Assembly (NCBI RefSeq): GCF_949769195.1
Contig: NZ_OX458334.1
Span: 1,723 to 25,722 of the forward strand
Source of the DNA: Methylocaldum szegediense
GTDB taxonomy: Bacteria > Pseudomonadota > Gammaproteobacteria > Methylococcales > Methylococcaceae
Reading direction: 5' to 3'
Length of the DNA stretch: 24,000 nucleotides
Below are positions 5,582 through 21,533 of the stretch, in pieces (the stretch's first letter is position 1; each line of letters begins with the position of its first letter). A model generated the notes under the pieces. It was not told where the DNA came from and did no database searches. It saw only the letters and a program-made list of their open reading frames with translations. Position numbers and translations under genes: made by a program.

Positions 5582-5829
5582 AACAAATACTCCTATTTAT
5601 CTATTTCAAAATAGGGCTTCTTTTGTTCCTGGATAGCGACTCCAGGAACCCGCAAAAGCCCGTCGCGGCTGCTGGTTTCTCCCTTTTACGTGCCGAGCCT
5701 ACCAGCAAAAGAGCACGGTATAATGATAACTAAAGTTATCACTCTGGGCAACAAAAAAACACGTTTAAATTCGATAATAAATACCCTCCTTATACTGCGC
5801 TCAAACACTTCCATTAAACCATTAGATAC

Positions 5830-6429
5830 TCAGAAAATACCCGCTTGACCGGAAACCCACCGGAAAGCCCCGGCCCACACGCCGGAGCCAGAAATCGGAA
5901 CCCACGCCCCCGCCCCCAAGGGCGGGAGCAACCGGCCGGCGAACCCGACCGGGAAGGCGAACACCGGCAGGCCGCGCGAAACCGCGCAACTGGCGGCCAG
6001 CAGGGAACCGCGCGAGACAGGCGAAGCGAAGAACACCACGCACCCCGCCGAGGCCTGCGCCACCACCGCCCGAGTGCGCGCGACAAGGCGGGCGGACAGA
6101 GGCACGGACGATGGGCCGCCGGCCCACCACGCCACCGAACCGCCGGCGGCCGCGAAGGCCTCCACGGCGGAAACCGCCGAAGCCGGGCCGGCGCCCGCGC
6201 CGCCGGGGCCGAAGGCGCACAGGCACGAAACCCGCGCGGCAGGGACGCCGCGCCCCGACGGAGCCACGGCGCAGCCAAGGACGGCGGCATCGACGCCAAC
6301 ACAGCAGCCCACCGCGAGCGAACGCCCCGACGCCATCAGCGACCGGCACACGGCCGCGACCAAAGCGGAGGCCTCCGGCGGCAGCGAGCGCGAACCCGCC
6401 ACCGATACGACGGCGCGAGGACTAGCCAC
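5830..6429 (-). CDS. DprA/Smf-like Rossmann-domain protein encoded almost without adenine
   Basis: The frame of track ORF 5830..6858, with a proposed GTG start at 6427-6429 overlapping the upstream stop (GTGGCTAG). It aligns by eye to the E. coli Smf core: VSVAGSRSLPP / IVGSRNPSPYG; GCCVGVDAAV / SGLARGIDGVA; ARTRAVVAQASAGCVVFFASPVSRGSLLAASCAVSRGLPVFAFP / [42 protein letters not shown]. Only 15 A occur in 600 coding-strand nt. Confidence 0.5.
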   Translation of the reverse strand: MASPRAVVSVAGSRSLPPEASALVAAVCRSLMASGRSLAVGCCVGVDAAVLGCAVAPSGRGVPAARVSCLCAFGPGGAGAGPASAVSAVEAFAAAGGSVAWWAGGPSSVPLSARLVARTRAVVAQASAGCVVFFASPVSRGSLLAASCAVSRGLPVFAFPVGFAGRLLPPLGAGAWVPISGSGVWAGAFRWVSGQAGIF

Positions 6430-6893
6430 GGCCGAACACCCCAGCCAGGCAAGCCAGCGGCCGGAGCAAGCCGCGGGCCACGGCCACCGACACGCCGGGA
6501 GGCAAGCACACCTTGACCGCGCAGACCGGCACGGGCAGGCCGACAGCCGAGAAGACCGGCGAACCGGCGGAACCAGGACGGGCCACGGCGCGCCACCCGA
6601 GCCGCGACGCCACCAAGGCCGCGAACAGCCCGGCCGCGGCCGGAGACCGGACCGGAACGAAAAGGCAGGCGGGCGCCGCCGAGAAACAGGACGAAGCCGA
6701 GAACACCCGCACCGCCCACACAAGCCGGCCGCAGCGACGAGCCACGACAGGCGCCGAGCGCCGGACGGCGGGAACGGAAACGAAACCGGAACGAGCCATG
6801 ACACACCCCCAAAACCGAGAACCAAAACCGCCCCGCCAACCCCGGCGGGACACCCCAAAAGAGAGAAAAACCGGAAAAAAGAGAGAAAACGCC
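5847..6893. other. Extreme strand-composition tract: + strand nearly T-free, - strand nearly A-free
   Basis: A hand count finds 14 T in 1047 nt on the + strand (about 1.3%). There is no T at all from 6515 to 6798 (284 nt). The flanks have ordinary T content. Confidence 0.9.
6422..6799 (-). CDS. Adenine-starved ORF (125 aa), unknown function
   Basis: ATG at 6797-6799 is preceded by GGGGGTGTGTC. The coding strand has only four A: one in the ATG start, two in a single AAG codon (6512-6514), and one in the TAG stop (6422-6424). The product consists of G/A/V/L/F/S/P/R/C/W, apart from the initiator Met and one Lys. Coding status is unproven because A-free sequence cannot contain stop codons. Confidence 0.35.
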   Translation of the reverse strand: MARSGFVSVPAVRRSAPVVARRCGRLVWAVRVFSASSCFSAAPACLFVPVRSPAAAGLFAALVASRLGWRAVARPGSAGSPVFSAVGLPVPVCAVKVCLPPGVSVAVARGLLRPLACLAGVFGRG

Positions 6894-7101
6894 TTCAGAA
6901 CAGACCGGGGCGAGCACGGCCGCAAGGGCAGGCGCGCCGTACTGCGACGGTGGGAGGTTGGTGGACTGGCTACGGAGAGACTAGCGACTGGTTGCAGCGA
7001 ACCTTGAGCGGCGCGCCTGGCGAAGCGAACCCTTGCGGCCGCGCGCAGTCCCCGGCTACAAACCGGGCGTTTTCTCTCTTTTCCGGTTTTTCTCGTGGGG
7101 T
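6851..7101. promoter_or_regulatory. Long imperfect hairpin (~250 nt) upstream of the A-starved ORFs
   Basis: Outer stem: 6863-6893 pairs with 7066-7094, about 29 bp with a 2-nt bulge. Inner stems: 6905-6910/7050-7055 (6 bp), 6918-6928/7030-7040 (11 bp perfect), 6929-6938/7010-7019 (10 bp perfect). A GCGAAGCGAA bulge sits at 7020-7029. Confidence 0.6.
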
Positions 7102-7909
7102 ACTCCCCACGCCTTTGTCCGAGCCGCAGCGAAGCCGGAGGGCGCGAGCACGGCGACCCGGAGCCATGCGGAGGGGCCGCGCGCAGCGACTGGAGGCGAA
7201 GCGGAGGCGAGTTCTCGCGTCTGGCGTCAGCCAGTCGCGCAGTCAACCCGGAGCCGAGCGGAGCTGGGCGAGCACCTTGGATGGATGGCGAAGCGCAGGG
7301 AAAGCGACGCCGGGTCTCGCTTCGGCGCTCGGATCGTCAGTCCAAGCCGGACAGGCGGGAGCATGGATACTGCCAATCCGTTGTCGGATCTACCGTGGGG
7401 TGAGCGCGAAGGGCGCGGCGTCGCGAGCTTGCGAAGCTCGAGAGCAGAGCCGCGCGCCTTCGGTACCGATACCCGACTTCTGACCGGGCTGGGAGCCAGG
7501 GACGGCGGCAAGGGACGTGACGGCAGGGATGCCGGCGCGGTCCCTTGCGGGTGGGAGATGGACTTTACGGGTTTCGCGTGTGAAAGCCGCCCCGGAAGCA
7601 TAGCGTGCTCCGGCTGGCGCGCGAGCTGCGAGGAGCGCGGGCATGCCCTAAGCATGCCCATAAGCGCGACGTAGCGGCTCGGCGAGCGCCTGTCGGGATG
7701 CAGCGCGTGCGTGAGGGGGCGGTTTTGTTGAGCGAAAGGGATTCCGTTTGGGGGGGCGGAAAGGGGGGAACGCCGAGCGCGGCTTCCTCTGGAAGCAAGC
7801 GAGGCGGGGGATGTAACGCGTCAAATGGCCGTGGTTATCAACACTTTTGTCTTTTTTACCAAGGATCACATCGGATTTCCACTTCCGTTTTCTCGACTCA
7901 ATTTGAGCC

Positions 7910-8997
7910 GTCTTCGTCTCTTCTTCATCAGGTCTCAGTTCAAACGCGAGCCGACCACTGCCTTTGAAAAGGTTCAGGCGTCTTAATCCCTTCTTAATCA
8001 GGTCTCGTTTCAAACGTCATCGAGTACTCGACGTGTGAGGAAAACACTCACGTCTTAATCCCTTCTTAATCAGGTCTCGTTTCAAACACGACTCGGTGGT
8101 TCGGAATGGCTCAGGACCAGGTCTTAATCCCTTCTTAATCAGGTCTCGTTTCAAACCCAAAAGCGCCCAGGAATTGTTGTTGCAATACGCAGTCTTAATC
8201 CCTTCTTAATCAGGTCTCGTTTCAAACCAATCAAGCAAGCAAGAACCGATAGGAGAATATCGTCTTAATCCCTTCTTAATCAGGTCTCGTTTCAAACTCG
8301 CCGGACTACTCACTGGCTAATGATCGAAAAGGTCTTAATCCCTTCTTAATCAGGTCTCGTTTCAAACGATCGAACAACTTCAAAAACAATTTCCTTTGGT
8401 CCGTCTTAATCCCTTCTTAATCAGGTCTCGTTTCAAACCCATGAAGATTATCAACCTGACTCCTCACCCAATGTCTTAATCCCTTCTTAATCAGGTCTCG
8501 TTTCAAACATGTATACCCGTCAGAGCCTCCTGTCTGCGGCAGTCTTAATCCCTTCTTAATCAGGTCTCGTTTCAAACATGGGCTCATACTACGAAACTGA
8601 TTTAGGCCTGCGGTCTTAATCCCTTCTTAATCAGGTCTCGTTTCAAACGCTAAGGTAGGTAAAAAAATGGCTAAAAAAGAAATGTCTTAATCCCTTCTTA
8701 ATCAGGTCTCGTTTCAAACAAATGGGAAGTCAACTTTGGCAAAGAATAAGGTCTTAATCCCTTCTTAATCAGGTCTCGTTTCAAACGGGGCAGATAATGG
8801 CAGATAAAAATTCGGATTGGTCTTAATCCCTTCTTAATCAGGTCTCGTTTCAAACCAATCCAGAAGCCGAACTCGAGGTCTACAGCCCCGTCTTAATCCC
8901 TTCTTAATCAGGTCTCGTTTCAAACAGAATTTGCCCTTGCGGTTGCTTATAACTGGGGGCAGTCTTAATCCCTTCTTAATCAGGTCTCGTTTCAAAC
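7910..8997 (-). CRISPR. CRISPR array: 15 identical 36-nt repeats, one degenerate terminal repeat, 15 spacers (31-36 nt)
   Basis: The + strand repeat GTCTTAATCCCTTCTTAATCAGGTCTCGTTTCAAAC starts at 7980, 8052, 8121, 8192, 8262, 8332, 8403, 8473, 8542, 8613, 8684, 8751, 8820, 8890 and 8962. A degenerate copy with 6 mismatches lies at 7910-7945. The - strand call is inferred from the degenerate repeat marking the trailer end, and from the - strand reading ending in ATTAAGAC (compare ATTGAAAC-type tags). The array itself is near certain. The strand call deserves about 0.6. Confidence 0.9.
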
Positions 8998-9108
8998 AGC
9001 TCGCGTCTAAAACACCCTCATATTCAATGTCTTACAAAGGGGGTTGTAGAAAATTCTCCGTTCGGAAAAGTTACGCTCATTCTCCCGAGAGTTCATCGTT
9101 TGCCTCTA

Positions 9109-9471
9109 TCAGGCGCTAACCTTCCTCTTGGTTCTGGTCTCGTCCTGCTGGCGCTCGATAATGGCGCGGCTCCGTTCAAGCTCGAAGATTTCGACTCCCT
9201 GCTCGCGGGTAATCTTCCCTTCCTCGATCAACATACACAAGCCTTTCCGCATCGCGTACATGCGGATCACGAGCGGATCGCTCGGCGCCTCTTGGCGCAG
9301 TCTTTCGATGCCGTCCCATGCCTCCTGCTGGTAGCAGTAGTTGTCTGGGTCAGTTCTCGGGTCAGGAGGAGGGTTCTCTTCCGCCGCAGTTACGCTGATC
9401 GGAATCGAGAAGAAAAGCAACGCGGCGAGCGCCGGCGGAATCGCTACATTTTTAAGGTCCGGAATCGTCAT
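9109..9471 (-). CDS. Small secreted protein, unknown function
   Basis: The start at MTIPDLKNVAIPPALAALLFFSIPISVTA looks like a signal peptide. Its ATG (9469-9471) overlaps the recombinase stop as ATGA. Confidence 0.55.
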   Translation of the reverse strand: MTIPDLKNVAIPPALAALLFFSIPISVTAAEENPPPDPRTDPDNYCYQQEAWDGIERLRQEAPSDPLVIRMYAMRKGLCMLIEEGKITREQGVEIFELERSRAIIERQQDETRTKRKVSA

Positions 9472-10112
9472 GTTTTCTTGCCTCCCTTGGTTGTCCTGCG
9501 CTTGATATATCGGCTCATGTTGTTGGCCTCCATCCACTGATAAAGGGTGTTTGGCGAACAGCCCACGATCCTCGCGATCGAGGTCTTGTGCACGCCCTTG
9601 ACGAGCAGGTCCTTGATCTCGTCCTTGCGCTTATCAAGCTTGCGCTCGTCGCTGGTCCTCCCCTTCGGCCTCCCGAGCGGCAGTCCCGCCGCCTTCCGCC
9701 GCGCCAAGGCCTCGGTGGTCCGCGCCGAGATAAATTCGCGCTCGATCTCGGCTGCGAGGCCCAGCACCGTTGCGGTGATCCTGGCGTGTAGGCTCCCGTC
9801 CATCACCATCCGGTTCTTGACCACGTGCACGGCGATTTCCTTCTCGGCGGCGTGCTGGAGGATCTCCAAAACCTGAAGCGTCGAGCGGGCTAATCGTGAG
9901 ATTTCCGCCACCAATAGAATGTCGCCTTTCCTAGCCTGATCGAGCAGCTTGCCGATGTCCCGCTCCCGCCAGTTTTTCTTGCCGGTAACCGTGTCGTCGA
10001 AAAAGGTCAGGGGTTCTAGGCCATGCTGCTTGGCGTACTCAATGACGCCGTGGCGCTGGTTGTCCAGGTCCTGCCGGTCGGTGGATACCCGTATGTAAGC
10101 GTAGGTGGTCAC
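9468..10112 (-). CDS. Serine recombinase (resolvase/invertase family)
   Basis: YAYIRVSTDRQDLDNQ catalytic motif, a LARS motif, and a C-terminal HTH (KTSIARIVGCSPNTLYQW). GTG start. Confidence 0.85.
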   Translation of the reverse strand: MTTYAYIRVSTDRQDLDNQRHGVIEYAKQHGLEPLTFFDDTVTGKKNWRERDIGKLLDQARKGDILLVAEISRLARSTLQVLEILQHAAEKEIAVHVVKNRMVMDGSLHARITATVLGLAAEIEREFISARTTEALARRKAAGLPLGRPKGRTSDERKLDKRKDEIKDLLVKGVHKTSIARIVGCSPNTLYQWMEANNMSRYIKRRTTKGGKKT

Positions 10113-10142
10113 AGTGGATTTGGAAGGATTCCGGACTAAAAT

Positions 10143-10176
10143 TTATCCTGATTAAACGTCCGTTTTTTTAGGATAA
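10143..10176. promoter_or_regulatory. 7-bp inverted repeat in the divergent region beside the recombinase gene (possible res/operator site)
   Basis: TTATCCT (10143-10149) and AGGATAA (10170-10176) are separated by 20 nt, just upstream of the recombinase start. The repeat is short, so the evidence is weak. Confidence 0.25.
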
Positions 10177-10273
10177 CATGCTCTTGGGTGGCTTACCCCT
10201 TGTCTCCCCCATAGCTTTGAATAAATTCGCTGTATAAACGTGACGTTTTTTCGGATGTTTTCAGGAGACGGGA

Positions 10274-10987
10274 ATGCTGTTTTTAAGGATCAAAAACCGC
10301 AATCGGAAACGGGCCGACGGGCGGCCATGGGCGGAAGCGCGGGTCATCCGCAAGACCCGGAAGTTTGGACAGGTCATCGAGGACCGGGGAATTTCAACCA
10401 AGCGCCCCGTGCTCGTCACCGGCGCGCACGCCTCCGGCAAGACCTACTGGCTGGAGCGCCTCCGGGCGAACGCCGGGCGCGTGTGGCCCGGCATCGGCGC
10501 CGAGCCGCTTCACCTCGCCGCGACACGCCCTCTCTCGGCTTGGACCGACGTCAAGCACCTCGAACTCTGGTGGGCGGGGCGCGAGAACTGCGACGACGAC
10601 CGCCATTGGTCCAAGCTCAAGGCCTGGGAACGGGTGGACGCCCTGCCGCTTTACCTCCAGGAAACCGGAGCCGTGCTGTTCGTCGACGACGCCCACGGGC
10701 TCAGCGGCCGGAAGCTCAAAGTCGCGCAGGAATGCGTCCGGGCCGCCAAGGTCTGGGTCATGGCCGCGGCCGACGAGGGCCGGATCGCGCCGGGCCTGCG
10801 CAAGGACGTCATGGCCGCCGAACCGCAGATATTCAGGCTCGATACCGAAGTCGCCTACGACGCGACCCCGATACTCATGTGGATCCTCATCACCCTGGCC
10901 TTCGCCGCCGGCTCGTGGGAACTCGGCATGGCCTTGGCGGGGCTCAAATTCCTAGGGAGCGGACGCCGTGCCGCGAAACAGACCTGA
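10274..10987 (+). CDS. P-loop NTPase with C-terminal transmembrane helix
   Basis: Walker A VLVTGAHASGKT, Walker B-like AVLFVDDAH, and a C-terminal hydrophobic helix ILMWILITLAFAAGSWELGMALAGL. Confidence 0.65.
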   Translation: MLFLRIKNRNRKRADGRPWAEARVIRKTRKFGQVIEDRGISTKRPVLVTGAHASGKTYWLERLRANAGRVWPGIGAEPLHLAATRPLSAWTDVKHLELWWAGRENCDDDRHWSKLKAWERVDALPLYLQETGAVLFVDDAHGLSGRKLKVAQECVRAAKVWVMAAADEGRIAPGLRKDVMAAEPQIFRLDTEVAYDATPILMWILITLAFAAGSWELGMALAGLKFLGSGRRAAKQT

Positions 10988-12906: not shown

Positions 12907-13019
12907 TGGGAGCAACGGCAGGACTTGAACCCGCACCCTTCCTGCCCATATCATGAAGCTTCCGAGGTCTCCATAATATGTAGAAAGCAGGATGCTCTAT
13001 CCGGTTGAGCTACGCTGCT
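12907..13019 (-). tRNA. tRNA-like gene (113 nt) with a ~36-nt insertion in the anticodon arm; anticodon not assignable
   Basis: The - strand reads AGCAGCG-TA-GCTCAACCGGATAGAGC-A-TCCTG-[43 nt]-CAGGA-AGGGT-GCGGGTTCAAGTCCTGC-CGTTGCT-C-CCA. The acceptor stem, D arm, T arm (GTTCAAGTC) and encoded CCA are canonical. The anticodon loop is replaced by 43 nt that contain a 12-bp stem (CATATTATGGAG / CTTCATGATATG) with a 10-nt loop. Confidence 0.6.
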
Positions 13020-17103: not shown

Positions 17104-17736
17104 GTGAGCGTCAGCGTCTTTGTTGAAACTAGGGATGTCCACGACCGCCTGGAAGCTTTAGGCCTCAATGAAACCGCGTTGTGCAACGCGGTCACGCAAG
17201 GGTATCTGGCCCGCGCGAGACTGACCCAGAATCACCCTCGAATCTTCCATGGCTACGCGGCCTGGGCCGAAACGGTTGCCTCGCTCCGGGATCAACTACG
17301 TCCCCACGGGTGGGAAAAATTCGACAAAGGCAACTACGAACTGACGGTCCATGCGGAACGCGAACTCGCGATCACCGCGGCAACCGGCGACGAGGGGACA
17401 GGTTTGGCTGATGCAACCCCATCGAACAAGTGTCCGAAGGGCAGCAATACGATCGAGGCTATCAATCTCAACAACCAAATCGATCTCTTTCAAGACCTAA
17501 TGCCGCTACCATCCACCGAGAAAGCACCCTTCACAACCTGGATTCTCCTCTATCACTTCGCGCAGGACGAGATTCGGAGCGAGTTGTCCTTACCGTCGTA
17601 TATAGACGCCCACGGAAAAATCCGCGGCTGGAAGGAGCGAATCATATTGCGCTCGATCCCGCTCGATGCGCGCCCCGTCGATGTACGGCCTCCAAAACTA
17701 CCGGACATCAATATCGAAATCAGGCGGCGTGCGTGA
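17104..17736 (+). CDS. Hypothetical protein upstream of the XRE-ImmA fusion
   Basis: 210-aa ORF with a GTG start that ends 9 nt before the next gene. No recognisable motif. Confidence 0.5.
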   Translation: MSVSVFVETRDVHDRLEALGLNETALCNAVTQGYLARARLTQNHPRIFHGYAAWAETVASLRDQLRPHGWEKFDKGNYELTVHAERELAITAATGDEGTGLADATPSNKCPKGSNTIEAINLNNQIDLFQDLMPLPSTEKAPFTTWILLYHFAQDEIRSELSLPSYIDAHGKIRGWKERIILRSIPLDARPVDVRPPKLPDINIEIRRRA

Positions 17737-17745
17737 CGAGAGGCT

Positions 17746-18858
17746 ATGTTCAACCCAACGCGCTTCGCTCTCGCCCGCAAACGGCGTGGCATGAAAAAGA
17801 AGGAATTGGCACAACGGGTCGGGATATGTGAGAAATCCGTTTCCGCTTACGAGAAAGGCGCCCAGGAGCCGGAACGGGATACGCTTGACCGGATTGCCCT
17901 CGCGCTTGGATTCCCGCCGGCTTTTTTCATGGGCGACGACATCGACGAGTTGACTCCCGATGTCGCGAGTTTCCGCGCGCTCACGAAAATGACGGCTGGG
18001 CGGCGAGACATGGCTCTCGGCGCGGGAAGCATCGCGCTTCTGTTGAACAAGTGGATCGAGGAACGGTTCGTGTTGCCAGAACCCGATCTTCTCGATCTAG
18101 GACGCGAACCGGGCGAGGCCGCGGGAGCCGAAGGACCGGAAGCGGCGGCAGAGGCATTGCGCCGCCATTGGGGACTTGGAGAACTGCCGATAAAGAACAT
18201 GATCGCCCTTCTAGAATCGAAGGGCGTCCGCGTCTTTTCTCTCGCGATCGACGCCAAGGAAGTCGACGCCTTTTCCATGTGGTACGGCGGCAAGCCGTTC
18301 ATGTTCCTAAACACCCTCAAGTCCGCCGAACACTGCCGATTCGACGCCGCCCACGAACTAGGCCATCTCATAATGCACAAGCATGGCGATCCGCGCGGAC
18401 AAGGGATTGAACGTGAAGCAAACGCCTTCGCGTCGGCATTCTTGATGCCGCGCAGGAGCGTCCTCGCAAACGCGCCGCGCTTGCCAACGCTACCGAATCT
18501 GATTTCAGCCAAGAAATATTGGACCGTTTCGGTCGCGGCCCTCAACTACAGGATGCACGCGCTGGGACTCACGACGGACTGGATCTATCGGACGCTGTGC
18601 ATGCAGATTGCCGAGGCTGGATACCGCACCCTCGAACCCGAGGGCGCGCCGCATGAAACGTCTCAATTGCTCCCCAAGGTGTTTGCCGCCCTTCGAGAAG
18701 AGGGTGTCACCAAGGATGACGTTGCGCGCGAATTATCAATTAGCCCGACCGAAATCGAGCAGTTGACGTTTGGGTTGATGCTGAACGCGCTCAGCAATAC
18801 GGGTCGGACTGTATCTCCCAGGCGGAGTAAAAACGCACATCTCCAAGTTGTGAAATAA
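17746..18858 (+). CDS. XRE HTH - ImmA/IrrE (COG2856) zinc-metallopeptidase fusion protein
   Basis: N-terminal HTH (LARKRRGMKKKELAQRVGICEKSVSAYEKG). Central HExxH (AAHELGHLIMH) with downstream EREANAFASAFLMP, typical of ImmA/IrrE. Confidence 0.85.
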   Translation: MFNPTRFALARKRRGMKKKELAQRVGICEKSVSAYEKGAQEPERDTLDRIALALGFPPAFFMGDDIDELTPDVASFRALTKMTAGRRDMALGAGSIALLLNKWIEERFVLPEPDLLDLGREPGEAAGAEGPEAAAEALRRHWGLGELPIKNMIALLESKGVRVFSLAIDAKEVDAFSMWYGGKPFMFLNTLKSAEHCRFDAAHELGHLIMHKHGDPRGQGIEREANAFASAFLMPRRSVLANAPRLPTLPNLISAKKYWTVSVAALNYRMHALGLTTDWIYRTLCMQIAEAGYRTLEPEGAPHETSQLLPKVFAALREEGVTKDDVARELSISPTEIEQLTFGLMLNALSNTGRTVSPRRSKNAHLQVVK

Positions 18859-19164: not shown

Positions 19165-19587
19165 ATGGTCGATACCCTCACTCCTGCGGAGCGTAGCGAA
19201 CGCATGGGACGCGTCCGCGGCAAGGACACCAAACCGGAAATGAAAGTACGTCGCCTTGTGCATGGCATGGGCTACCGTTACCGCCTACATCGGCGTGACT
19301 TGCCGGGTTGCCCCGATCTTGTCTTTCCTCGGCTTCGCAAGGCGATTTTCGTGCATGGGTGCTTCTGGCACCGGCACCCGGATCCGGAATGTAAGCTCGC
19401 CCGCCTACCGAAATCCCGTCTGGACTTTTGGTGGCCAAAGCTGGAAGGGAATCGCCGTCGCGACGAGGCAAATCAGGCCGCCCTGCTAGCCCTTGGCTGG
19501 CGGTTTCTTGTAATTTGGGAGTGCGAAACAAAAAAAACACAATATCTAGTGATCAAAATAAAAAATTTCCTAGAGGAGGACGAATAG
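19165..19587 (+). CDS. vsr: Very-short-patch repair endonuclease
   Basis: RSERMGRVRGKDTKPE..R..LH..G.RYRLH...LPG.PD.VF......IFVHGCFWH.H matches Vsr. Confidence 0.9.
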   Translation: MVDTLTPAERSERMGRVRGKDTKPEMKVRRLVHGMGYRYRLHRRDLPGCPDLVFPRLRKAIFVHGCFWHRHPDPECKLARLPKSRLDFWWPKLEGNRRRDEANQAALLALGWRFLVIWECETKKTQYLVIKIKNFLEEDE

Positions 19588-19590
19588 AAT

Positions 19591-20775
19591 ATGCGGGCGA
19601 TTGAGTTGTTCGCCGGGGCTGGCGGCTTGGGAATCGGCGTGAGTCGCGCTGGATTCAATCCCGAGGCGGTCATCGAATGGGATGATTATTGTTGCGATAC
19701 CATCCGCGAGAATCAGGCACGTAAACTAGACCCCATCGTGCACTGGCCTCTCTTCCACGGCGATGTGCGGGACTTCGATTTCCGTAGCGTCCGCGGCGAC
19801 GTTGACCTTGTATCGGGCGGTCCACCCTGTCAGCCTTTCTCGCTTGGCGGCAAGCACCGCGGTCCCCTAGATGATCGGGATATGTTCCCGCAAGCCATCC
19901 GCGCGGTGCGTGAATTGAAGCCAAAGTCCTTCATATTCGAGAACGTCAAAGGACTGACCCGCGCTAGTTTCGCTAATTACCTTGAATATATCCGCTTGCG
20001 TCTCACATACCCTGAACTTGTCGAGCGACGAGCCGAGGCTTGGGAAGATCACCTTGCTCGCCTTGAGCGGCATCATACCCGCGGAAAACATAACGGCTTG
20101 CATTACCACATCGTCATGCGGACCCTGAACGCCGCGGATTACGGCATTCCGCAGCGCCGCGAGCGTGTCTTCCTGGTTGGCTTCCGCGCCGATCTCGGCA
20201 TTAAATGGAATTTTCCAGACAAAACGCACGATCAAGACGCCCTTCTGTGGTCGCAATGGCGGACGGGTGAGTATTGGGAGCGGCACAAGGTAGCCAAACG
20301 CCACCGACCGGAAGGCGGTAAGGGCAAGGCTCGCGCCTTCGCGTTGAAGGAACCGCCACGACTCGCGCCGTGGCGCACGGTGCGCGATGCTATTTCCGAC
20401 CTGCCAGACCCGGAGAAAAACCCTGATGCGGCCGCGGCCTTCCATAATCACCGCTTCCAACCCGGAGCCCGCAGCTACCCCGGCCACACTGGCAGCCCCT
20501 TGGACGAACCCGCAAAGACATTAAAAGCCGGAGATCATGGCGTTCCTGGTGGCGAAAACATGCTTTTGCGCCCGGATGGATCCGTTCGTTATTTCACGGT
20601 GCGCGAGAGCGCCCGCCTACAAACATTCCCAGATGAATTCCTATTCCATGGATCGTGGACTGAAACCATGCGCCAGCTTGGAAACGCTGTTCCCGTTGAC
20701 TTGGCTTACATCGTCGCTAGTAGCGTCAAAACACACCTTGATCTTACCGCCACGCCAGCCAAGAACAAACCATAA
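19591..20775 (+). CDS. dcm: DNA (cytosine-5)-methyltransferase
   Basis: Motif I ELFAGAGGLG, motif IV GGPPCQPFS, motif VI ENVKGL, motif VIII QRRERVFLVG, motif X GNAVPV. Confidence 0.95.
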   Translation: MRAIELFAGAGGLGIGVSRAGFNPEAVIEWDDYCCDTIRENQARKLDPIVHWPLFHGDVRDFDFRSVRGDVDLVSGGPPCQPFSLGGKHRGPLDDRDMFPQAIRAVRELKPKSFIFENVKGLTRASFANYLEYIRLRLTYPELVERRAEAWEDHLARLERHHTRGKHNGLHYHIVMRTLNAADYGIPQRRERVFLVGFRADLGIKWNFPDKTHDQDALLWSQWRTGEYWERHKVAKRHRPEGGKGKARAFALKEPPRLAPWRTVRDAISDLPDPEKNPDAAAAFHNHRFQPGARSYPGHTGSPLDEPAKTLKAGDHGVPGGENMLLRPDGSVRYFTVRESARLQTFPDEFLFHGSWTETMRQLGNAVPVDLAYIVASSVKTHLDLTATPAKNKP

Positions 20776-21533
20776 TGCCAGGCTATCTTGAATTTGAATT
20801 CGACCTTCCCGGAGCGCTTCTTGCTAATCTCACGCATCTCTTTGACAGCATGAGTTCCGCCGCGCTATTGCCAAAGAACCTAATTGACATCCCTGATGCG
20901 CAGGGGGTGTATCAACTCCATCTTCGCGGTTCGTTGGTATATATCGGCAAAACGGACGCCGAAGCTGGGCTACGCAAGCGACTTGAACGCCACGCCCGTA
21001 CCATTCAGCACCGTTGCAACCTCGATCCTAACGAAGTCAGCTTCAAAGCCGTGCGAGTGTTCGTCTTCACTGCCATGGACCTTGAATTTCAACTTATCAA
21101 GCATTACAGCGCTATTTCTCCGGTCCCTTGGAACAATAGCGGGTTTGGATCGAACGATCCAGGTCGACGCCGTGACCATTCCAAGGTTAAACCCAATGGC
21201 TTCGACGAACAGTATCCCGTTGATATCAATCGGGAGATTGATTTATGCCTTTCATCGCCCATCAGCGCCGCTGATGCTCTAGCCGCGCTTAAGAAAACTC
21301 TACCCTATACCTTTCGTTTCGAGACTAAAGACGACCGTAGCCGAAAACCACACCCCGATTTAGTTACCACGCAAGTAAATCTTCCCGCAGCCCCCTACAC
21401 TACGCGTCGTTTCCTTGAAAACCTGACATACCAGCTACCCACTGGTTGGCAGGCGACGGCTCTTCCAAGCCGCGTTCTCCTGTATAAGGAGAACGAGGAC
21501 TACGAATTTGGAACGATAATCGCAAGATCATAG
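20775..21533 (+). CDS. GIY-YIG-type restriction endonuclease (Eco29kI-like)
   Basis: GVYQLHLRGSLVYIGKT....LRKRLERH is a GIY-YIG core. The start ATG overlaps the last base of the methyltransferase stop codon. Confidence 0.6.
   Translation: MPGYLEFEFDLPGALLANLTHLFDSMSSAALLPKNLIDIPDAQGVYQLHLRGSLVYIGKTDAEAGLRKRLERHARTIQHRCNLDPNEVSFKAVRVFVFTAMDLEFQLIKHYSAISPVPWNNSGFGSNDPGRRRDHSKVKPNGFDEQYPVDINREIDLCLSSPISAADALAALKKTLPYTFRFETKDDRSRKPHPDLVTTQVNLPAAPYTTRRFLENLTYQLPTGWQATALPSRVLLYKENEDYEFGTIIARS

Follow-up and report, generated by a model that had tools for sequence, protein, structure and literature searches.

We analyzed a 24,000-nucleotide (nt) stretch of Methylocaldum szegediense DNA (contig NZ_OX458334.1, positions 1,723 to 25,722 of the forward strand), referred to below as the window, and found that a tract of about 1 kb with almost no T on the plus strand is the antisense, template-strand view of a compact unit on the minus strand. 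The unit consists of an A-free leader, a gene for a small basic protein (orfA) and an overlapping gene (orfB) whose product is predicted to resemble DprA. We hold it to be very nearly certain that selection excludes A from the sense strand throughout an extensive family of these units, which are found on plasmids and other mobile elements of several phyla; this judgement applies jointly to the whole descriptive part, that is, the unit, the DprA-like orfB, the plasmid context and the family-wide selection against A. Taken together with the proposal that the exclusion would render the message insensitive to adenosine-dependent attack, this description is, on balance, the best explanation as a whole.

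A single-base depletion of 1 kb

The plus strand of positions 5847-6893 (1047 nt) contained 265 A, 417 C, 351 G and 14 T, and its longest run without T was 284 nt (6515-6798). This recount agreed with the initial annotation, which had drawn attention to the tract, and the composition that it reported for 5851-5950, with C outnumbering G by 45 to 29, was exact (the remainder being 25 A and 1 T). At the T frequency of the window (0.216), the probability of finding 14 or fewer T in 1047 nt was ~8e-88. The maximal T-poor segment extended from 5847 to 6939 and had 16 T in 1093 nt. A scan for single-base depletion returned this region as the sole strong case in the window, in agreement with the earlier view that the tract is unique there and unlike ordinary GC-rich sequence. 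One other, much weaker segment was flagged (126-1070, with 74 A's among 945 nt); it corresponds to the antisense of the KfrA gene, and the scan detected no C- or G-depleted segments in the window. It had also been stated that all six reading frames are open in the tract. This was nearly right, although five stop codons were present when the six frames were summed, against ~41 expected from the density in the flanks, and base depletion does account for the pile-up of overlapping open reading frames (ORFs). The coding on the minus strand, the DprA-like fold and the large mobile-element gene family had been missed.

The minus strand of the tract is coding

To identify the coding strand, we aligned the related sequences pairwise and counted the differences in each of the three phases. 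The comparison of Nitrosococcus halophilus with N. watsonii gave 6/13/36, 9/17/27 and 8/42/12 differences per phase, a strong 3-nt periodicity that was also present in the orfA block, and the comparison of the window with Methylomagnum gave 28/60/21. Each periodic phase is compatible with one plus and one minus frame, and we compared the ratio of nonsynonymous to synonymous differences (pN/pS) between the two. The pN/pS values were 0.21-0.46 in the minus frame, which had no stops, and were always below those of the matching plus frame. The minus strand was settled as the coding strand by the two-fold codon families with identical first two bases, since none of the 31 third-position differences was nonsynonymous when read on the minus strand, as opposed to 48 of 85 on the plus strand. 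The genes neighbouring orfA and orfB lie on the same strand.

Two other interpretations of the tract were considered and rejected. A plus-strand gene for a hydrophilic disordered protein (frame open to 7483) had the higher pN/pS and the nonsynonymous third-position differences given above, and contained stops in the Nitrosococcus homologues. A non-coding RNA was discarded on the grounds that the substitution periodicity shows translation; in addition, the Rfam 15 covariance models gave no match to the tract and its flanks at the gathering score or at E<=1. In three Nitrosococcus plasmids (L001, L003 and L004; related loci are numbered in this way throughout), the Prokaryotic Genome Annotation Pipeline (PGAP) annotates the A-free region as 'hypothetical proteins', two or three in number, whose frames and boundaries disagree, showing that gene callers handle the region poorly.

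orfB encodes a DprA-like protein

The orfB gene (5830-6429, minus strand) encodes 199 amino acids (aa), starts with GTG, ends with TGA and contains 11 A in 600 nt. Its start codon lies inside the overlap with the orfA stop (GTGGCTAG), and the closest homologue, P0001, which is 91% identical, also starts with GTG. Compared with the DprA/Smf family of Pfam (PF02481), the protein scored 24.9 bits (E = 1.3e-5), below the gathering cut-off of 29.6. A word-indexed search retrieved 357 homologues, many of them with a precomputed PF02481 match, while an exhaustive profile search gave a family of 988 clusters (50% identity) at E<=1e-3 and 579 at E<=1e-10.

AlphaFold2, supplied with 30 homologues, modelled orfB with a predicted local distance difference test (pLDDT) score of 93.4 and a predicted template modelling (pTM) score of 0.89; the A-poor orfB was predicted as a confident fold built from about ten amino-acid types. 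The top 11 Foldseek matches of the model were all DprA or ShosA chains (E 4e-5 to 3e-4) and superposed with a TM score of ~0.57 and a root-mean-square deviation of ~3 A over ~165 columns. The best neighbours in the PDB were DprA of Helicobacter pylori and Rhodopseudomonas palustris (5mll, 4ljk, 3maj) and ShosA (8zva, E = 1.7e-4). A 30-member orfB profile aligned to 3maj (E = 5e-5) and 3uqz (2.6e-4), and in this alignment the order of the DprA motifs was kept (GSR, G-x-D-x-x-A, R-x-R, (S/R)GSL-x-A and PV-x-A-x-P). Judged by the model, orfB is a stand-alone DprA-like Rossmann domain, and its family is a variant of the known DprA fold, not a new fold. By analogy with these proteins, orfB probably binds single-stranded DNA (ssDNA). 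The protein has a charge of about +10, with 13 Arg, no Lys and three acidic residues. The basic charge of the orfA and orfB proteins is nevertheless weak evidence for DNA binding, because an A-free alphabet partly forces it (the codons of Asp and Glu contain A).

The second gene, orfA (6422-6799, minus strand), encodes a very basic protein of 125 aa (net charge about +15) in A-poor codons, with an ATG start and a TAG stop. It has only four A's on the sense strand, which fall in the start codon, the codon of the conserved Lys96 (AAG) and the stop codon. The reading frame is kept in the Nitrosococcus plasmids and further loci, and an alignment with nine protein homologues had 22 invariant columns. 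The AlphaFold2 model was a moderately confident alpha/beta structure (pLDDT 76.6) for which the PDB yielded no structural neighbour, and the sequence had no match in Pfam, PADLOC or PHROGs. Some loci have an alternative A-poor gene upstream, named orfA2, in place of orfA. L047 has a second, free-standing A-free gene of the orfA2 type at 8992-9634 on the minus strand, with 7 T counted over 643 nt of the plus strand. A distance of 3 kb separates it from the main A-free unit, which is on the opposite strand, so that A-exclusion belongs to several gene families and not to one locus layout.

The A-poor unit is conserved across mobile elements

A blastn search with the tract found 65-71% identity over ~1 kb in plasmids of N. 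halophilus, N. watsonii, N. oceani and Methylomagnum ishizawai. The syntenic segment of 1.2-1.3 kb was T-poor on the same relative strand in all four (15 T in 1236 nt in Methylomagnum). Homologous plasmids that were finished independently therefore carry the same T-poor tract, and this conservation, together with that in dozens of metagenomic loci, excludes the assembly or chemistry artefact that the initial annotation had raised. A-poor segments centred on orfB were found across 43 genome loci and 13 IMG/VR loci. Most of these 56 related loci had such a segment, usually as the sole strongly depleted one; a few weak or partial matches had none, and other flagged segments were mostly weaker. 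The segment spans 0.2-1.2 kb upstream of orfB and usually ends at or near the orfB stop. In the longest segments, A occurred 7 times over 1714 nt (L045) and 26 times over 2070 nt (L061). The carriers include Methylococcales, Chromatiales, Halomonas, Betaproteobacteria, Chloroflexota, Rubrobacterales and IMG/VR contigs; in one of the latter (L057), the stretch examined had replication and partition-type genes only. A BLAST search of a phage collection with the tract gave no match.

Adenine is avoided at the nucleotide level

The proteins of the unit consist almost entirely of the ten residues that have A-free codons (Ala, Val, Gly, Ser, Arg, Leu, Pro, Phe, Cys and Trp). Among 145 further divergent representatives obtained by profile search, the fraction of residues from this alphabet had a median of 0.91 (range 0.47-0.99). 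We then examined the fourfold degenerate sites, at which the third base can be A (A3) or T (T3) without a change of residue. In the window, A3 was 1-2% in orfA and orfB versus 12% in other genes, and T3 was raised. When 32 loci were pooled, A3 accounted for 204 of 4478 sites (4.6%) versus 24% for T3, and in hosts of 44-55% GC (L012, L018, L022, L036) A3 was 1-2% and T3 44-56%. Ser and Arg are encoded almost exclusively by TCN and CGN, and AGY and AGR are shunned. The avoidance reaches beyond codons, as the intrinsic terminators of L012, L018 and L045 are A-free, and in L022 and L006 the A-poor zone begins a few nt from the +1 position predicted by a sigma-70-like -10 box. Amino-acid composition and codon bias cannot explain the asymmetry between A3 and T3, the leader and the terminators. 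Of the 14 residual A's on the sense strand in the window, 12 are nonsynonymous or belong to the ATG start or the TAG stop, and two are synonymous. They include those in the codons of the conserved Lys96 of orfA and of the invariant Asp47 and near-invariant Thr119 of orfB.

We compared the strict members of the family with three relaxed ones (L011, L014 and L017). At fourfold sites where the relaxed members carry A, the strict members had G at 118, T at 91 and C at 82, while their background usage of G, T and C at fourfold sites was 718 : 613 : 701. Residue exchanges from relaxed to strict members were the most conservative A-free choices available (Ile to Val, Tyr to Phe, Lys to Arg, Met to Leu and Thr to Ala). 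The comparison with normal-composition homologues that had been proposed initially thus falls on the side of selection: because G, T and C replace A in roughly background proportion, the sequences indicate that A-avoidance is the result of selection and not of A-to-G mutation. Selection for an A-free sense strand or mRNA had been one of the causes named initially, and it is borne out by the loss of A at synonymous sites and in parts of the leader and terminators while the protein is conserved. Avoidance of restriction sites, of adenine methylation or of photodimers had been suggested as the object of this selection; these fitted poorly and were not retained, since the depletion covers only ~1 kb of the replicon and follows gene boundaries.

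Leader, hairpin and downstream promoter

The leader (6800-6893, minus strand) has no A in 94 nt. It comprises a conserved T-rich motif (GGCGTTTTCTCTCTTTTTTCCGGTTTTTCTCTCTTTTGGGG, 6853-6893) and a G/C hairpin with a T-rich tail that resembles a terminator (6829-6852), and a Shine-Dalgarno-like GGGGG, made of G only, precedes the ATG of orfA. The T-rich motif does not appear to be coding, since its frame relative to the next ORF differs between the window and L002. The motif (TTTTCTCTCTTTTTTCCGGTTTTTCTCTCTTTT; 6853-6893 on the minus and 7066-7094 on the plus strand) is nearly a pyrimidine mirror repeat around CCGG. It also occurs in L002, L015, L016, L019 and L026, usually as a divergent inverted pair, and is therefore conserved at the DNA level between gamma- and betaproteobacterial elements. 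It could be an initial transcribed region, a protein-binding site or triplex-prone DNA.

The two copies of the motif are carried by the outer arms (6863-6893 and 7066-7094) of a long inverted repeat at 6860-7095. When folded as ssDNA, the repeat forms a hairpin with a free energy of -87 kcal/mol (z = -7.95). The inner stem has a -35-like box (TTGCGG, minus strand, 6925-6920), followed ~17 nt downstream by an internal loop (6894-6904) at the place of a -10 box; no -10 consensus or TATAAT-like hexamer was found in the hairpin. The same architecture, 200-260 nt long, is common to the window, L002, L015, L016, L019, L020, L026 and L048, with -35-like boxes of TTGACA, TTGCAA or TTGCGG in the stems and the internal loop ~17 nt on. 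An alignment of six of these loci showed compensatory changes in 12 of 39 pairs.

At the other end of the unit, A's return immediately after the orfB stop. A predicted sigma-70-like promoter (TTGCCC-17-TATCAT, 5723-5751, minus strand) overlaps a palindromic operator (GATAACTAAAGTTATC, 5725-5740). It serves the next operon, whose base composition is normal, and delimits the A-poor unit. Promoter and operator elements stand directly behind the orfB stop in many loci.

Just past this promoter and operator, where the operon behind orfB has its 5' end, we noted a conserved pseudoknot candidate of ~50 nt (5669-5717, minus strand). Its helices interleave (helix 1 CGTGC/GCACG, helix 2 CTGGT/ACCAG) and the loops GGCTCGG and GGAGAAA are nearly invariant. 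The candidate is also present in L001-L003, L007, L008, L011, L014-L016, L028 and L047-L049. Over 13 loci, 95% of the cells pair and seven of the ten pairs have compensatory changes; the covariation score was 0.547 compared with 0.215 in shuffles (0 of 500), and slid controls reached <=0.16. No Rfam family matched. The structure may act as a translational regulator, or as a riboswitch-like leader, for the establishment operon downstream of it (DUF932-AAA_24-Gp157 in relatives).

Possible purposes of adenine exclusion

We infer that selection acts on the nucleic acid and, in the simplest case, on the mRNA. As for the purpose, our tentative proposal from the sequence pattern is that the message is made insensitive to adenosine-dependent attack. 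An A-free message would present no target to such an attack on RNA, for which the candidates are mRNA interferases, both ribosome-dependent and free, such as HigB, RelE, YafQ, MazF, ToxN, AbiQ and HicA, as well as A-specific HEPN ribonucleases (RNases) and enzymes that modify adenine. This would leave the element able to produce its basic proteins, including the DprA-like one, while attack systems are active, for example during establishment in a new cell. Most characterised mRNA interferases recognise sites in which adenosine is needed, and essentially every codon with an A is a substrate for HigB (PMC7781912). Attack by HigB-type enzymes or other interferases would fit the data since A is avoided at all three codon positions and the depletion mostly tracks the coding region. 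We also count in favour of this purpose the hicAB or hicB genes that adjoin the tract in the Nitrosococcus plasmids. Whole-nucleotide exclusion may be seen as a possible form of counter-defence by mobile elements. The DprA-like ssDNA binder and its small basic partner would form a first-response module whose message, or thymine-free template, is invisible to adenine- or thymine-directed immune effectors and toxins and can be expressed while ordinary transcripts are destroyed or modified. Stable Rossmann-domain proteins that draw on some ten amino acids, lack Lys and have hardly any acidic residues would be a by-product, as far as the models indicate. We put forward these two suggestions jointly and with reservation.

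Several observations weigh against an adenosine-directed attack as the purpose. A-avoidance is graded in the family (the fraction of A-free-alphabet residues goes down to 0.47, and L014, L011 and L017 are relaxed), indicating that it is not essential for the protein. The depletion often halts at the orfB stop, and the leaders of L016, L015 and L033 contain A, indicating that the whole transcript is not always A-free. A partially A-free transcript is compatible with ribosome-dependent toxins and weakens the more general reading of an A-free RNA. U is not avoided, leaving the message open to U-specific RNases. In addition, orfB is under the Pfam threshold for DprA and has neither a SAM nor a C-terminal domain, so that its binding to ssDNA is an assumption. 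Finally, a T-free template, an ATP-sparing transcript and an A-free mRNA share one sequence footprint and are inseparable here.

The first of these alternatives holds that the selected property is a T-free template, which would be transcribed as ssDNA from a hairpin of the Frpo/ssi type right after entry and would offer no target to thymine-directed attack on ssDNA, such as ADP-ribosylation by DarT or T-containing photodimers. The hairpin that stands directly upstream of the unit in eight loci, with its -35-like box, internal loop and compensatory changes, resembles Frpo in architecture (PMC11541004). A DprA-like ssDNA binder would suit an ssDNA stage, and the next operon has a repressor-type operator like that of zygotically induced establishment genes. 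We nonetheless consider a T-free template unlikely to be what was selected. The four finished plasmids are typed as non-mobilizable, and the genes identified in the window include none for a relaxase or for type IV secretion. The hairpin lacks a -10 consensus, and the symmetry of its inverted repeat would be equally compatible with a divergent promoter in double-stranded DNA or with a regulatory cruciform. Moreover, L022 and L006 have ordinary sigma-70-like promoters with no hairpin and are equally A-poor, and T is present at normal levels in the adjacent establishment genes, which would pass through the ssDNA stage as well.

Nucleotide economy, which we judge to be improbable, would make the transcript nearly ATP-free and the sense DNA nearly dATP-free, so that the unit could be expressed when a defence drains or converts the adenine pool. 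The difficulty is that aminoacylation needs ATP, so that ATP-free transcription alone gives no protein, and the 14 residual A's in the window still need ATP. The extent of the depletion can be read in both ways: it spans synonymous sites, the leader and some terminators, as expected of the transcribed region and not of codons alone, yet it usually stops at the stop codon and not at the terminator. That one of the four bases is excluded and that C- and G-depleted segments are lacking in the window agrees with an economy of adenine. DprA-like proteins of the ShosA type are linked to a toxin that perturbs purine metabolism (PMC11961720), but this is an association only, and orfB has neither a PADLOC match nor a ShosT-like partner.

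More doubtful still is a constraint at the level of decoding or of the protein, in which the residues with A-containing codons (Lys, Asn, Thr, Ile, Met, Gln, His, Glu, Asp and Tyr) are themselves avoided, either because translation would then survive anticodon nucleases (directed at tRNA-Lys, Tyr, Asn, Asp, His, Glu or Gln) or as an escape from lysine-directed modification. Such a constraint leaves unexplained that A is 10- to 40-fold rarer than T at fourfold third positions, as well as the A-free leader, the G-only ribosome-binding sequence and the A-free terminators, and the encoding of Ser and Arg by TCN and CGN rather than AGY and AGR is a choice of nucleotide, not of amino acid. On the other hand, most members draw 90-99% of their residues from the ten amino acids with A-free codons and have nearly no Lys, the depletion coincides with the coding region in most loci and ends at the stop codon, and the retention of Phe and Trp with loss of Tyr, and of Arg with loss of Lys, follows the logic of codons.

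A-to-G hypermutation by adenine deamination, which the initial annotation had listed as a cause, or adenine mutagenesis like that of diversity-generating retroelements, has next to no credibility: the sense-strand composition (G > C, T >> A) has the direction expected for deamination of an exposed strand and L048, alone among the loci, has a TadA/MafB19-like deaminase gene 2.7 kb from the unit, but the replacement of synonymous A by G, T and C roughly at background contradicts it, the A3 missing in AT-rich hosts goes largely to T3, the proteins are under purifying selection and conserved across phyla, and cytosine, which deaminates much faster than A, is not depleted in the tract. Direct searches of the window were also made. 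With T collapsed into C, A or G, blastn of the tract against the window matched only a 30-nt hairpin arm, so that no hypermutated duplicate was present, and the window contained no reverse transcriptase and no pair of template and variable repeats as in a diversity-generating retroelement.

Plasmid context and other features of the window

The window is a plasmid-like replicon with TrfA, ParA, KfrA, two resolvases, a restriction-modification (R-M) system, an RmrT-type toxin and an orphan CRISPR array. Downstream of the A-free unit lies a recombination and establishment module with a promoter of its own, Gp157 being one of its genes. On long contigs the gene order is A-poor ORFs, orfB, two small ORFs, DUF932, AAA_24 and Gp157; in the window, Gp157 is kept downstream of orfB, and DUF932 and AAA_24 are not recognisable. 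A hicAB pair lies directly between the A-free unit and the downstream operon in the plasmids of N. watsonii and N. oceani, and in the N. halophilus plasmid (L001) only hicB is annotated beside the unit. Among the window ORFs scanned against Pfam, no relaxase, oriT, type IV secretion or transfer genes were recognised, and PLSDB typing classified all four related plasmids as non-mobilizable. PADLOC gave no match for orfB, orfA or four neighbouring ORFs, and ORF scans found no phosphoribosyltransferase of the ShosT type in the window.

The orphan CRISPR array (7909-8997) has 15 perfect 36-nt repeats (GTCTTAATCCCTTCTTAATCAGGTCTCGTTTCAAAC) and spacers of 31-36 nt, with degenerate repeats at the 7909 end. 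No cas genes were identified in the window, and an exact search of a reference-genome collection with the repeat gave no match. The degenerate end and the 3' motif of the repeat suggest minus-strand transcription of the array, in the direction of the hairpin and A-free unit. The 0.8 kb between the hairpin and the array (7095-7890) is G-rich on the plus strand (39-46% G) and has no recognisable gene, Pfam match or Rfam match.

Farther away, a tRNA-like gene (12910-13019, minus strand) has a full acceptor, D and T scaffold with a 39-nt insert in the anticodon loop; it scored 47 bits with the Rfam tRNA model, ARAGORN reported nothing, and it adjoins a replication-type gene with helix-turn-helix (HTH) and DnaD_N domains. 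At 17104-18858, an RmrT-type toxin (PADLOC PDLC03935, E = 1e-63) is followed by a protein with HTH and ImmA/IrrE (M78 peptidase) domains, and the two form a probable defence or toxin-antitoxin pair. The R-M cassette (19165-21533) comprises a Vsr mismatch endonuclease, a C5 cytosine methyltransferase and an Eco29kI/GIY-YIG-like endonuclease. Outside the window, the deaminase-domain gene of the Methylolobus contig L048 (6710-7312, TadA/MafB19-like), which was seen at this one locus only, is upstream of both the main A-poor zone (8987-10575), by ~1.7 kb, and orfB, by 2.7 kb.

Significance and relation to known systems

If our account is true, bacterial genes can be selected for the exclusion of one whole nucleotide from the message, and such selection can go so far as to recast a conserved enzyme-like fold in an alphabet of ten amino acids. 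ORFs depleted of a single base are easily found by sequence and would provide a search signature for early or counter-defence genes of plasmids and phages, which could in turn reveal the nucleotide-specific attacks that mobile elements face. With hundreds of diverged members and relatives of normal composition, the family would be a test case for how few amino-acid types suffice for a packed alpha/beta domain, and a natural design template for messages resistant to toxins or RNases.

DprA/Smf, the recombination-mediator protein of natural transformation, which binds ssDNA and loads RecA, shares with orfB the Rossmann-type core, the order of motifs and the basic character, although orfB scores below its Pfam gathering threshold. 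Canonical DprA has an N-terminal SAM domain and a C-terminal DNA-binding-like domain, whereas the Rossmann core makes up the full 199 aa of orfB. In addition, orfB resides on plasmids and mobile elements beside DUF932, AAA_24 and Gp157 genes and is nearly without A-containing codons, unlike canonical DprA. ShosA also has a DprA-like Rossmann domain and was among the best structural matches of orfB (8zva). It is the antitoxin of the ShosTA (Shosha) defence system, in which it binds ssDNA and counteracts the toxin (PMC11961720). In contrast, orfB has no ShosT-like phosphoribosyltransferase partner, no PADLOC model match and no SAM domain, and its genomic context is different. Thus, orfB is neither ShosA nor canonical DprA.

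Frpo/ssi elements are single-strand promoters of plasmid leading regions, located next to oriT, whose hairpins mimic duplex promoter DNA. The upstream region is similar to them in having a long imperfect hairpin ahead of likely early genes, a -35-like box in the stem and an unpaired -10 position (PMC11541004). It differs in lacking a -10 consensus, in being a symmetric inverted repeat and in its location on plasmids typed as non-mobilizable, with no oriT recognised in the window, so that the likeness is one of architecture and a function in ssDNA is putative.

The A-depleted signal-sequence regions of eukaryotic secretory mRNAs (ALREX) are reportedly tens of nucleotides long, and their A is said to be depleted by both amino-acid and synonymous codon choice. 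They are the only natural A-depleted coding tract that we found in the literature (PMC2100149), and they are eukaryotic, serve nuclear export and are unrelated to the present unit in sequence, organism and mechanism. Searches of open-licence papers and preprints returned no prior description of A-free, adenine-poor, lysine-free or DprA-like leading-region genes. Within the open-licence literature, we therefore rate natural genes that exclude a whole nucleotide as a phenomenon of a new category.

The logic that we favour, a message protected by its composition, matches that of natural depletion of toxin cleavage motifs (PMC7781912) and of engineered ACA-less, MazF-resistant messages, in which recoding confers immunity to a sequence-specific RNase while the protein is kept (PMC9102682). 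However, in those cases a single motif of 3-7 nt was removed by synonymous changes only, whereas the present unit dispenses with one entire nucleotide for more than 1 kb and pays for this with a reduced amino-acid alphabet, and the exclusion is natural and conserved across phyla.

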